NCBI GenBank assembly: GCA_030167865.1 | Contig: JALAGF010001544.1 | Span: forward strand, 1-37,784 | Length of the DNA: 37,784 nt | DNA from: Craspedostauros australis | Taxonomy: Eukaryota | Direction of reading: 5' to 3' | Shown: positions 12,434-20,971 of the stretch, piece after piece | Numbering within the stretch: position 1 is the stretch's first letter | Layout: every line of letters begins with the position of its first letter | Program-made: the position numbers and the translations under genes | The notes under the pieces: model-generated | Databases searched by the model: none | What the model was told of the DNA's origin: nothing | The model's input: the letters and a program-made list of their open reading frames with translations, nothing else

Positions 12434-12986
12434 ACAAATGCGCTGCAGTAGAACAAGGACTATCCTGAGTCCTCATTCATCCTCGCACATCTCCACACAC
12501 ACACACTTTTTCACGCAAAGAAGTGAATCCCATCACAACCGACCACCAATACAGCAACGATATGCATAGCAACCATACAGCGCCCCCATACGGCATCCCC
12601 ATACACCATAGAATATAGAAAACACGCAATAGAATAGAACATAACATATAATACCATAGACAATCGACCACTTTACAATCATCATCTTGTAGACCGTTCA
12701 GCAGTCTTCTCCGGCTTGATTTCGAAGTCGCCCTCGCGACCTGCGTTCTTTGAAACATGTGCATACTTCCACGGGATCGTTTCGGGTCCGTTCTTTTTGC
12801 AACCAATGCACTGCGCCAGCAGCAGAAAGGGAATCTCTTCAGTTCATTCAGAAGTCATCGTGAACATTGCTTAGTATTCATTCATACTTCACAGCATTCA
12901 TCTAACTTGAAGTTGTGATGCTAAAGAGCCAACCATCGCAAGTTCTACAACGCATCACAGCAACAAGCAACAAATAGACAAGCAAG

Positions 12987-14723
12987 ATGGATCTCATTCA
13001 GCTCGTCAAGTCGGTGTACTCCACCGGACTCTTCATCTTCTCGATCACCATCGTCTGCGGACTCATCTTCAATGAGCAGACCAAGGTCTCGTCCGAGGTC
13101 CACCCAGTGGTCGCCTTGGTCGTCATGATCACGGCCCTCGTATGGCTCAACATGGTGGAGAGAGGACAGGGGTCCCTCGTCGGTCTCCCACCAGTCGACC
13201 GCGACCTCTACGTCGAATCCCACCCAACCAGCCACCACTGCACCTCCCTCGCCCACAAGGGTGACAACCTCGATCGCTACCTCATGGTCTTCACCATCAA
13301 CCAGTGCGATGCCCCCCCCCCCCCCCTCGCCGATGCCCGAGTCTTCGGCTTCCCAGACATCATCATCCAGATTTTCCTCGGATCCGGAGCCGCCATGATC
13401 CTCATGACCGCTCAAGCCGGACAGCTCAACTCCCAAGTGAACGCCTCCCTGTGCATGCTTGACTACATCAACAACTTCTTCGCCGTCTTCACCCTCTATG
13501 TTGCCCTCGCCATTGAGTTCTCTGGACTTCTGCACTCGTGCTACCTCGTCCAGATGTTCTTCGTCTGGGCCTCTGGCAAGGAAATCGAGTCGAAGGAACC
13601 ACCACGTGACGGTGCCCAGAACCTCTTCTACTGGGGCCGCATCCTCATCTCCCTCGCCATCCTGTGCTATGCCATGGCTGTCACCCTGGTCGCCCTCTTC
13701 GATGGAAAGACCACCATGTGGGCCGGAGTGACAAACGGAGTCGCTGTCATCCTCTTCTTCCTCTTCATGTCCATCGTTGGTATGCTCGAGGGTATGCAGA
13801 TCGCCTTCTTCGCCGTCGCCAAGCTTCCAAAGGAGGAGCGTGGAGACCATCCAATGGCCCGCAAGACCTGCGAGCTCCTCTTCCGCGGTGACGGACGCAA
13901 CCTTCCAGGATTCATGATCGGACGTCAGATCTTCGTGACGATGTGCTTCTTCATCATCGCTTGTGTCACCACTCTTGATGTCGAGGTCGGAACTGGCGAG
14001 AACATCTTCGGAGTCTCCGATAGCACCCAGGAATTCTTCAACACTGGACTTCTCGGAGCCCTCATCACCACCATCATCGCCTCCATCGCATGGCAGCTGG
14101 TTGTATCCATCTTCCCAATCGCCTTCCTTTCCAGCCCAATCGTCCACATCTTCCTCGAGTTCTCTCTGTTGTTGGAAGCCACCGGTATCTTCTCCGGAGC
14201 CTGTGTCCTCGCTTCCGTCCACAAGGCCGTCTCTGGCTTCCAGCTTGATGAGGTGTACATTGGCACCCCAGAGGAGCGCGTCGTCGGCATGAAGCCAGAC
14301 CACAAGAGCAACCGTAACCTGCACCTCGGAACCAACGTCCTTGTCAACGAGGCAAGTTCCACTGCCGTTCCAAAGGAATACCTCGAGCTCCAGAAAGCTC
14401 TCGCCGCACAGAACGAGTCTTACCCCGTCCGCCGCGAGCGCATTCTGTCGAACATCAAGAGCCTCCGCGAAGAGATCAACGCCTGCAGCAACGAGGAGGA
14501 TGCCGTCGTTTTCGAGTCTGCTCTTCGCATGGAGACTGCTGCCATGAACGAGCTGAACCAGGACGAGGAGAATGAAGGTTCTGAGGCTGACGCCGATGAG
14601 GAGATGGGCATGCAGAAGTATGCACTATGTGCATTAAGGGGCAACCAGAGTGCGCCGTACCAATACACCAAAGCATCAACACATGCGTCACGTTGCCAAA
14701 GGTATCTTGGAGATGCATCGTGA
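12987..14723 (+). CDS. SIT: Silicon transporter (SIT family), degenerate in its N-terminal half; may be a young pseudogene
   Basis: SIT hallmarks: QGSLVGLPPVDRDLY.ESHP, KGDNLDRYLM, GQLNSQVNASLCMLDYINN, LEGMQIAFFAV, NLPGFMIGRQ, FFNTGLLGALITTI and a C-terminal coiled coil. Open reading frame of 578 aa. The first EGXQ reads ERGQ and the first GRQ is absent. Confidence 0.93.
   Translation: MDLIQLVKSVYSTGLFIFSITIVCGLIFNEQTKVSSEVHPVVALVVMITALVWLNMVERGQGSLVGLPPVDRDLYVESHPTSHHCTSLAHKGDNLDRYLMVFTINQCDAPPPPLADARVFGFPDIIIQIFLGSGAAMILMTAQAGQLNSQVNASLCMLDYINNFFAVFTLYVALAIEFSGLLHSCYLVQMFFVWASGKEIESKEPPRDGAQNLFYWGRILISLAILCYAMAVTLVALFDGKTTMWAGVTNGVAVILFFLFMSIVGMLEGMQIAFFAVAKLPKEERGDHPMARKTCELLFRGDGRNLPGFMIGRQIFVTMCFFIIACVTTLDVEVGTGENIFGVSDSTQEFFNTGLLGALITTIIASIAWQLVVSIFPIAFLSSPIVHIFLEFSLLLEATGIFSGACVLASVHKAVSGFQLDEVYIGTPEERVVGMKPDHKSNRNLHLGTNVLVNEASSTAVPKEYLELQKALAAQNESYPVRRERILSNIKSLREEINACSNEEDAVVFESALRMETAAMNELNQDEENEGSEADADEEMGMQKYALCALRGNQSAPYQYTKASTHASRCQRYLGDAS
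13312..13326 (+). repeat. C15 homopolymer inside the SIT coding sequence (in-frame, encodes APPPPL)
   Basis: gat gcc ccc ccc ccc ccc ctc read directly. Confidence 0.9.
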
Positions 14724-18394: not shown

Positions 18395-19215
18395 ACGCGC
18401 AAGCCTCAACCACGGTACACCCGCGAACATGACGTTCCAGTGGCAATGCATGTCCTCCTGGATGAATGATCGTGCGGCACGACACGTGATTGGACAGAAC
18501 GAACAACGCGAGACTAAAAGCAAGCAGGGTTGTGAGATCTTCTTCGAAGATCTTGTGACACAATCCAAGCACTGACTCCCAAGCAACCAGATCTTTGCAG
18601 GCTTGTGACAAATGTATTATACAATTAAAACTAAAACCCGATTCATACACAGCATGACTCTAGAAAGAACTGTACCGCGACCCCCACGCTCCAAGCGGGT
18701 TCTTCTTGATGCTGGTGTGTGTCTTCTTGTGCAGCAACAATTGCACGTGGTGGAAAAAACAGATGAGGCGACCAACATATTCGAGTAACCGGTCTCGCCG
18801 CCGTGGCTCATGGAGACAAGCACATCGACTGCCTGTTATGGTTTGTTCTTTCTGGTGGTCCACACTATTAGTTTGGGTGAATGCGAGCAAATATCGTGGA
18901 TTATGGTTTTGCATTCACGCTAACTGCTCTACTCTACTCGACGCTTCCTCACAACGACCCACCCATCAACATGCCATTTCATCGATGTCATTGGAGTGTA
19001 TCGAATCCCGAGCAAATCTCCATTCGCGAATCGATTGAACGAATGGACAAAGGATTGATGGCCGACATCAACAAAAAGAAATTGGTTCGTTTTCCCAAAC
19101 TCTCTCCGCCCCAACCGCGAGGTGCCACAATTCGTATCCTCGCACGGAGCAGCCGATTGCCGTCCTCACCCTGCACAATTGCATTTGTCCCCAAAGGACG
19201 ATCAGTGGCTCTAGC

Positions 19216-20971
19216 ATGAAGGTCGGGCTTCAACGTTGTCTCAGACCGCTCCAACCACTGTCGCGAGGCAAGGCGGCGGCTTGGTTTGGTGGATCTCGCT
19301 GCGCGAACTGGATCACTCCAGTCACCATGGACGGCAACACGAGGCTGGCATCGTCCAAGCCAACACCATCGTCGCTGTCGAGCCCGCGCGCGCAGCACGC
19401 CGTTTCCCTCTTGCCGTCCTACCTGACGGATGCAAGAGCAGTCGAGATTTACTCTGAGTCCACACCTGATGGCGTGCTGCAACTCAGCGTCGCCGAGAAT
19501 CAGATGTTGGAAGACCTGCTGCTGCCGGCCATTCACAAGTTCAGCATCACCGCCCATACAGCAGACGGCCTCTGCTTTCCTGCGGACGGCATCTACTACC
19601 AAACCACGCACGGACGCGAGTCCTGCCGGAAGGTCGTGGCGGACTATTTCACGCAAACCCTCAAGCTGTCCAAGCCGATGGATGCCGATGGTGTTGTCAT
19701 TGGTGCTGGATGCAATGCCGTTCTGGAGAACCTGTGCATCACCTTGACATCTCCGGGAGATGGCGTCCTGGTGCCAACGCCGTACTATGCCGCATTCGAA
19801 TTTGATCTTGGTTGTCGAGCGGGTGAGTAGGTCTGACGTGGGTGCGTTCGCAATGTGCTCGTGTCGTTGAACCGACATCTAGGCGCAGAATTGTTTGGAG
19901 CAATACTCGTACACTTTGGCTGATACAATCACCCCCTCGCACCGATTCACTCATTCATTCATTCACTCATTCATTCCGCTCACTCTCTGCCTCTCTGATG
20001 ATCCACGCCCACAATCAAAATCGCAAACAACATCCAAACCTGTAGGACTGACCATCATCCCGGTCCAAACCATGGATTATCATGATGACAGCACCACCAT
20101 CGACCGCTCTGGTCCAATCCCACAGCACATGTACTACCCAAACAAGAAGTCGCTGGGCGCGGCATACGCCAAGGCCGTCGAAGCGGGCAACCCGCCACGC
20201 ATCTTGCTCATCAGCCATCCCATGAATCCTCTCGGAATCAGTTACCCGGAGTCCGTCATCCAGGAGTGCACCGACTGGTGCCGCGAAAAGAAGGTGCATC
20301 TCGTCAGCGATGAGATCTACGCCGGAAGCGTGCATGCAGGCGAAGATGCTGGCTTCGTGTCGGCCTTGGAGGTTGCCGCGACGCAAGACGACGATGGCTC
20401 CGCAGGTCTGGGTGTGGGTCCGTACGTTCACTTCGTGTGGTCCATGTCGAAGGACTACGCGTCCAGCGGATTGCGCGTGGGTGCGCTATATTCTGAGAAT
20501 GAAGAGATCCGTCTGCCCTTGCAGAAGTTGAATGATCTGTGCAGTGTGTCGTCACAAACTCAATTGTTGGTGGAAAGCATGCTGTCAACGGAGACGGAGG
20601 CAGCGGCCGGAAACGGAGCATGGTTCGAGGCATTCCTCGAAGAAAATCAATCGCGCTGCGCTACGCGCGGCGGTGAGTGGCAAAGCTGCCTGGAGGAGCT
20701 GGACATCCCGCATCTCAAGCCAACATCAGGATTGTTCATTTGGATGGATCTGCGCGAGTTCCTGCCCGAGGATGGCACGGATGCCGAGCGCGAGCGCAAG
20801 CTGTACTTGGATCTCATGCAGCACGGTCTGCTGTTCACGCCAGGGGCGAGCATGAAGAACGAGCTGCCGGGATTCTTTCGCTGTGTCTTCACTGCAGCAT
20901 CCCAACACACCAGCGATCTGGGCATCGAGCGATTGAAGGAATTCGTTGCCAAGAAGCGTAGCAGCGCATAA
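19216..20971 (+). CDS. ACC-synthase-like PLP-dependent class I/II aminotransferase; exons 19216(or 19327)-19822 and 20046-20971
   Basis: ACS-like boxes: QLSVAENQM, VPTPYYAAFEFDL, SHPMNPLG, HLVSDEIYAGS, WSMSKDYASSGLRVG (PLP Lys) and PGFFRCVF. The phase-1 intron GTGAGT(19823)...TAG(20045) joins CRA-G-LTIIPV. The start codon is uncertain. Confidence 0.88.

Follow-up and report, generated by a model that had tools for sequence, protein, structure and literature searches.

A silicon transporter gene of Craspedostauros australis without its first GRQ motif in an uninterrupted reading frame

Introduction

Can a gene still serve its original function when its reading frame is open from end to end but a part of the core of its product is missing? 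This question is raised by a silicon transporter (SIT) gene of Craspedostauros australis, located on contig JALAGF010001544.1 of the assembly GCA_030167865.1. The whole stretch of DNA analysed, hereafter called the window, is 37,784 bases long and corresponds to positions 1 to 37,784 of the forward strand. A full SIT possesses ten transmembrane (TM) helices, two EGXQ-GRQ motif pairs and a CMLD motif located between TM4 and TM5. In the gene described here the first motif pair is damaged, together with the third helix, and we lean towards the view of a recent knock-out that struck a redundant copy of a SIT.

A silicon transporter gene with two in-frame indels

The window contains on its forward strand, from position 12987 to 14723, an uninterrupted open reading frame (ORF) of 578 codons, the product of which is called P0001 (ORF list). 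P0001 matched the Pfam profile PF03842 (Silic_transp) with an E-value of 5.6e-223 and 741.3 bits, far above the gathering cutoff of 26.8, and the match extended over residues 3-531, aligned to profile positions 4-507 of 513. It was the sole SIT match found by tblastn within the window. On the strength of this family match, the ORF encodes a SIT. When P0001 is compared with a full SIT, the first EGXQ-GRQ pair is reduced to ERGQ and a deleted GRQ, helix 3 of the expected ten is lost (a prediction, not an experiment), and CMLD is present between TM4 and TM5. The gene does not correspond to a SIT-L either, a class defined by five TM domains, one motif pair and approximately half the length, as P0001 has 578 residues and both halves are present. 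Neither a premature stop nor a frameshift, the marks of a classical pseudogene, was observed: the 578 codons are open and the length of both indels is a multiple of three.

Residues 58-61 of P0001, E58-R59-G60-Q61, are encoded by GAG AGA GGA CAG. A preliminary description of this DNA, made from its letters, had reported that the first motif reads ERGQ with an AGA codon at position 13161, and this codon was indeed read at 13161-13163. It had also reported an in-frame jump from DNLDRYLM to VFTINQC without GRQ, which was borne out by an alignment with nine homologues. The segment DNLDRYLM ended at M100 (ATG, 13284-13286) and VFTINQC began directly at V101 (13287). In its place, the nine aligned homologues (alignment A1) all carried GRQFMV and three further residues. 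The deletion encompasses 27 nucleotides, or nine residues, consisting of the GRQ and of six residues of TM helix 3, and the reading frame is kept.

A second in-frame indel, overlooked in the preliminary description, was located nine codons past the deletion, where P0001 reads A-P-P-P-P-L and the homologues read A-P-L. A tract of 15 consecutive C (C15) adds nine nucleotides at this place, corresponding to three prolines. The two indels are found within 40 bases of each other. The C15 tract was the only homopolymer of at least eight bases in the window, and in 168,445 bases of metagenome sequence, drawn from 80 loci that carry a SIT, the longest homopolymer measured 11 bases. A homopolymer of 15 bases in a coding sequence is unstable and hypermutable.

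Two other accounts of the missing segment were considered and rejected. A small intron would add sequence, whereas here sequence is missing, and no plausible splice pair was visible by eye. The GRQ segment was not encoded elsewhere in the window, where tblastn with the nearest relative P0015 (see below) and with P0038, the SIT of Cylindrotheca fusiformis, gave a single collinear match.

The lesions among other silicon transporters

A set of 206 SIT sequences, P0001 and 205 others, was aligned to the profile (a hidden Markov model), and 50 shorter fragments were checked separately. The second position of motif 1 was a G in all the 205 other SITs and an R in P0001 alone. The first GRQ was present in 203 of the 205, the exceptions being one GHQ and one GWQ, and it was never deleted. 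The segment going from DNLDRYLM to the next PL was free of indels in 204 of the 205 sequences, with a gap of a single residue in the last one, and none of the 205 showed an insertion at the position of the C15 tract. In the 50 fragments the only gaps at the deletion site were fragment ends. Altogether, neither ERGQ nor a deletion of GRQ was seen in 255 other SITs (205 full-length sequences and 50 fragments), among which the nearest relative of P0001 shows 72% identity. As judged from these alignments, the lesions are far beyond chance variation. True orthologues carrying them may simply be unsampled.

The full-length protein search returned nothing above 71% identity among the 120 matches listed out of 1396. 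Searches with residues 45-135, which span the junction, at near and shorter lengths, gave no sequence sharing the junction. The scan of metagenome contigs, from which the 80 SIT loci mentioned above were obtained, reached a best protein identity of 63%. The nearest relative found was P0015, a sequence of transcriptome origin (source label MMETSP1352 'Stauro...'), which covered 93% of the query at an identity of 71-72%. Unlike P0001, it displays an EGGQ, a GRQ and a full helix at residues 93-116. In the available text of Marron et al. 2016 (PMC5100055), only two variants of GRQ are given across the family, GRH and GQS, both of them substitutions. In the passages of the literature that were consulted, no SIT was described as having lost GRQ by deletion; examples may exist in the alignment supplements of PMC5100055 and PMC4912633.

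Substitutions in the second half of the protein

The EGMQ and GRQ of the second half and the CMLD motif had been described as intact. These motifs are indeed unchanged, but conserved residues elsewhere in the second half are not. Among the 205 other SITs, 93 columns were conserved at 95% or more, 88 of which are covered by P0001 and five of which are deleted in it. P0001 showed five substitutions at these columns (G59R, P249T, R326C, A373V and W406C), four of which fall in the second half. The median of the other sequences was 1, and P0015 showed no deviation at the 93 columns as compared to the five substitutions and five deleted positions of P0001. At columns conserved at 90% or more, nine substitutions were counted in P0001, six of them in the C-terminal half, as compared to a median of 3 in the others and to 2 in P0015. 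Five or more deviations at the 95% level were reached by 17 of 201 other sequences. The most deviant of these (P0037, P0062, P0046 and P0075) were only 40-48% identical to P0001.

Predicted consequences for the protein

Structural models of P0001 and P0015 were produced with AlphaFold2 and approximately 100 homologues, by the same procedure for both proteins. In the P0015 model, which had a mean predicted local distance difference test score (pLDDT) of 89.5, a helix of 24 residues extended from 93 to 116, included the GRQ and was predicted with a pLDDT of 93-95. In the P0001 model (mean pLDDT 83.8), only two short helices, 95-98 and 102-107, were left at this place, and residues 96-109 had a pLDDT below 50. 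If TM helix 3 is delimited as in P0015 (residues 93-116), nine of its 24 residues are removed by the deletion. The hydropathy profiles led to the same picture: a 19-residue Kyte-Doolittle peak of 1.72 was visible at residues 102-120 of P0015, and no peak of at least 1.6 existed between residues 57 and 121 of P0001. According to these predictions, helix 3 cannot form in P0001. Long helices were predicted near the C-terminal end (residues 479-499 and 503-550), with a pLDDT of approximately 90-95 for residues 481-530. The rest of the P0001 model was confident, as is to be expected from the alignment, and this confidence is no evidence of folding.

In published topologies, TMD3 carries the first GRQ at its cytoplasmic end (PMC5100055; PMC4912633), and the loss of TM3 should disturb the orientation of what lies downstream. 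In PtSIT1, transport was substantially diminished when any one of the four GXQ glutamines was replaced by alanine, and the mutation of Q104, which is the glutamine of the first GRQ, made binding about 10-fold weaker and destabilised the protein (Knight et al. 2016, PMC4912633). By analogy, the loss of the whole GRQ, with six residues of the helix, should do no less damage than these mutations. Among solved structures, no sequence match was found for P0015 and no Foldseek match against PDB was obtained at an E-value of 0.001 or lower.

A separate observation concerns residues 250-426 of the P0015 model, which form its C-terminal half. The best matches obtained with VIA-align were the transmembrane (DUF21) domains of CNNM/CorC proteins, which are Mg2+ transporters. 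For helical bundles, scores of this size (7cfg_A: Z 11.4, root-mean-square deviation 3.7, 151/156 residues aligned; 7m1u_A: Z 10.8, root-mean-square deviation 3.3, 136 residues aligned) are classed as uncertain by VIA-align itself. If this match is true, each half of a SIT would resemble a CorC protomer.

Rate of change and codon usage

In the phylogenetic tree P0001 was the sister of P0015, with a support of 0.976. The terminal branch leading to P0001 measured 0.233, versus 0.176 for P0015, and ranked 28 among 102 terminal branches. Counted against ten different outgroups, the unique changes amounted to 33-43 in P0001 and to 16-27 in P0015, the difference reaching p<0.05 with six of the ten. 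The bias towards C-ending codons (C3) of the SIT ORF was 0.53, the highest value among the nine ORFs of the window. On these values, the gene behaved as a SIT under constraint during the greater part of its divergence, and the recent excess of change, which includes normally conserved sites, is modest. An old pseudogene was rejected, given a terminal branch that is only 28th in rank, an intact codon bias and the absence of stops.

Interpretation of the locus

We propose that the gene is a redundant SIT copy, either a paralogue or an allele, which evolved under relaxed constraint and was recently knocked out, a reading in which we place somewhat more belief than doubt. Two readings had been put forward in the preliminary description, namely a gene inactivated not long ago (young pseudogene or null allele) and a SIT that no longer transports but is retained as a sensor or a regulatory subunit. 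The former agrees better with the predicted loss of helix 3, the spread of substitutions at conserved sites over both halves, the hypermutable C15 tract and the absence of either lesion from the 255 other sequences, and nothing came in positive support of the sensor. For most of its history, the gene would have been a normal, constrained Na+/silicic-acid transporter gene. The constraint would then have been relaxed, probably as other SIT copies cover the function, and substitutions at conserved residues of both halves (the five listed above) would have followed. At a later stage, the deletion of 27 nucleotides would have taken the first GRQ and the start of TM helix 3, and the C tract would have expanded, with the result that four prolines occupy the place at which the helix is expected to exit the membrane. 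The product is then expected to be unable to build the ten-helix core of a SIT and to transport silicic acid. In this scheme, the knock-out is too young to have closed the frame or altered the codon bias. The general setting is familiar in diatoms, where the duplication of SIT genes is described as frequent and one SIT lineage as deteriorating under relaxed selection and lost recurrently (PMC10700740).

Several observations weigh against this proposal. The lesions were read from the assembled sequence. There is neither a stop nor a frameshift in 578 codons, and the probability that both indels (27 and 9 nucleotides) are multiples of three by chance is, by a rough reckoning, about 1 in 9. The excess in the rate of change of P0001 is modest and was not significant with four of the ten outgroups. 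Neutral decay was also simulated in a crude way, with a transition to transversion ratio of 2:1, 0.05-0.1 indels per substitution and 25% of the indels in frame. Approximately 40 neutral substitutions were required for about 4.6 hits in the 88 conserved columns, and the reading frame survived in 2-7% of these runs. With 20 substitutions, an intact frame was obtained in 13-29% of the runs. The simulation implies that not all the changes at conserved sites can comfortably be placed in a drift posterior to inactivation, and a period in which selection was weakened without being absent has to be assumed. It is because of this result that relaxed but still present selection, followed by a recent knock-out, is favoured over a long neutral decay.

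The lesions themselves could be an artefact of assembly or sequencing. The gene would then be a normal SIT in which the gap, the C15 tract or both result from mis-assembly, gap closing or the miscalling of a homopolymer, and G59R would be an ordinary variant. The closeness of the two indels is in line with this explanation, as is the C15 tract itself, the sole run of at least eight bases in the window and one that exceeds the maximum of 11 in the 80 SIT-bearing loci; moreover, the junction is without an independent sequence in any of the collections searched. However, the window is otherwise sound, with long open frames carrying Pfam domains, a clean two-exon aminotransferase gene (see below) and no N. 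Both indels are exact multiples of three, and an artefact at the indels would leave G59R and the other substitutions at conserved sites unexplained. We regard an artefact as unlikely. Another possibility, which appears about equally unlikely, is that of a retained but non-transporting SIT in which the N-terminal half-site is dead. Such a protein could be a sensor acting via EGMQ and GRQ, or a regulatory or dominant-negative partner acting through its C-terminal helices. In the case of one divergent SIT lineage, a function in sensing has already been put forward (PMC10700740). The open frame of 578 codons with its two in-frame indels, the strongest codon bias of the nine ORFs, the intact second motif pair and CMLD and the confident prediction of the long C-terminal helices all speak for retention, and so intact a frame would be improbable (2-7%) if all the changes at conserved sites were neutral. 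On the other hand, the change is not a subtle one at the site: a core transmembrane helix is gone, and the topology downstream should suffer. The C-terminal half, supposedly preserved, was struck more often (six of nine at the 90% level). The variant form was seen in none of the 255 other sequences, with none closer than 72% identity sampled, and a C15 tract would be expected to be selected against in a gene that is needed. Our belief is slightly smaller that the lesions are real and that the gene is at the same time kept, with its second EGMQ/GRQ pair, CMLD and the C-terminal helical region for interaction, so that the protein senses silicic acid without transporting it or associates with working SITs in a regulatory or dominant-negative manner. 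If this were true, no natural 'half-dead' protein would have been known before it in a pseudo-symmetric transporter family of diatoms.

The least likely reading, to which we give a very small chance, is that P0001 has kept its transport activity, possibly at a reduced level, with the C-terminal motif pair alone binding silicic acid and a shortened helix 3 being tolerated. It would agree with the open frame, the strong codon bias and the integrity of the second motif pair and of CMLD, and the single glutamine mutants of PtSIT1 are described, in the available text, as diminished and not as abolished in transport (PMC4912633). Against this stand the length of the helix-3 segment, invariant in 204 of 205 other SITs, and the first GRQ, kept in 203 of 205. 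Furthermore, the mutation of Q104 alone was enough in PtSIT1 to cut binding about 10-fold and to destabilise the protein (PMC4912633), whereas P0001 lacks the entire motif together with six residues of the helix, and the helix is lost in the model.

If the proposal of a recent knock-out is true, the birth-and-death process by which diatom SIT genes are known to turn over would have been caught early, with the frame still open. An annotation pipeline would call this gene a normal silicon transporter, thereby inflating the count of SIT dosage. The natural deletion of the first GRQ and of helix 3 would also provide a ready-made negative control, or a test of the independence of the two halves. 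The gene would become important only if reads confirm the lesions and if it proves to be expressed and conserved; it would then be a concrete candidate for the long-discussed SIT that senses without transporting.

Relation to known silicon transporters

Canonical diatom SITs (Group 1 of Marron et al. 2016) such as PtSIT1 and the C. fusiformis SIT P0038, with which P0001 shares 56-58% identity, have in common with P0001 the overall pattern of helices, CMLD, the second EGXQ/GRQ pair and a helical C-terminal tail. They differ from it at three places, as P0001 has an R for an invariant G, has lost GRQ and six TM3 residues by deletion and has gained three prolines by insertion. A reference topology prediction for Skeletonema grethae shows four GXQ motifs (PMC10700740). 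The GXQ sites of TM7/8 and CMLD are found in all the PtSITs (PMC2758714), whereas P0001 has lost a motif and a helix. The known variants of GRQ in Diaphanoeca grandis SIT-beta (GRH) and Paraphysomonas SIT2 (GQS) are substitutions in a helix of full length (PMC5100055), unlike the motif of P0001, which is deleted with a part of the helix. The SIT-L proteins, with five TM domains and one EGXQ-GRQ pair, are half-length (PMC5100055); P0001 likewise has one functional-looking pair, yet it is full-length with a damaged first half.

A parallel in terms of evolution may be found in the SIT3 lineage of the Thalassiosirales (PMC10700740) and in PtSIT3 of Phaeodactylum tricornutum (PMC2758714). These are divergent or dispensable SITs, under relaxed selection, with a low expression and repeated losses, and they have been discussed as pseudogenes, sensors or different transporters; for PtSIT3 in particular, both the state of a pseudogene and a different role of the protein were considered (PMC2758714). 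The same setting could apply to P0001, which no test made here places within the SIT3 or PtSIT3 lineages.

Two observations on the database matches can be added. Many of the best-scoring hits (P0002-P0014 and others) were 820-1012 residues long and covered approximately 75% of the query. Their lengths would fit concatenated multi-SIT genes, by analogy with those described in Synedra (PMC6114903). In addition, P0042, a SIT of 562 residues with 57% identity to the query, is labelled as a hypothetical protein from a Clostridia bacterium metagenome-assembled genome and originates from a contig of 3,447 bases. It is probably encoded by diatom DNA binned into a bacterial genome.

Coordinates, 3' end and neighbouring genes

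The positions of the features of the SIT gene are given in Table 1.

Table 1. Location in the window of the features of the SIT gene.
Feature	Position	Strand	Basis
SIT ORF, 578 codons, P0001	12987..14723	+	ORF list, Pfam PF03842, tblastn
Motif 1 (EGXQ) as ERGQ; Arg codon AGA at 13161-13163	13158..13169	+	sequence, alignment
Junction of the 27-nucleotide in-frame deletion, between 13286 and 13287	13284..13289	+	alignment, AlphaFold2 models
C15 homopolymer, 9-nucleotide Pro-Pro-Pro insertion in the loop that follows what is left of TM3	13312..13326	+	alignment
CMLD, intact, residues 156-159	13452..13463	+	sequence, alignment
P249T (ACA), column at least 95% conserved	13731..13733	+	conserved-column count
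Second EGXQ motif, EGMQ, intact	13788..13799	+	sequence, alignment
Second GRQ motif, intact	13920..13928	+	sequence, alignment
R326C (TGT) in TM8, column at least 95% conserved	13962..13964	+	alignment, conserved-column count
A373V (GTA), column at least 98% conserved	14103..14105	+	conserved-column count
W406C (TGT), column at least 95% conserved	14202..14204	+	alignment, conserved-column count
Last 34 codons plus stop, probably 3' untranslated region or intron read through	14619..14723	+	alignment, codon bias, pLDDT

The last 34 codons of the ORF had no counterpart in the tails of other SITs (columns 560-609 of alignment A1). The C3 value dropped to 0.23 in codons 511-570, versus 0.42-0.75 in the earlier codon windows, and residues 551-578 were modelled with a pLDDT below 50. 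A donor-like GTATGC, spotted by eye, starts at position 14618. The true 3' end is probably near 14618, and the end of the gene would require a 3' intron or an earlier stop.

The neighbours of the SIT gene are ordinary eukaryotic genes, encoding an NTPase of the NUBPL/ParA type, an RRM protein, an aminotransferase, and Bromo_TP, EDR2_C and CLASP_N proteins, and the 37,784 bases do not contain any N. The class I/II aminotransferase gene is found on the forward strand at positions 19039-19830 and 20040-20971, split by a single intron of approximately 200 bases. Its second exon matched positions 131-355 of the Pfam PF00155 profile and its first exon looked N-terminal-like by eye. This clean organisation in two exons is a sign of sound assembly around the gene. 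Opposite the SIT gene, a frame of 301 codons was observed on the reverse strand (positions 12945-13850), the product of which is of low complexity and rich in G, E, D and V. It is typical of the spurious frames that occur opposite a gene with a strong codon bias.

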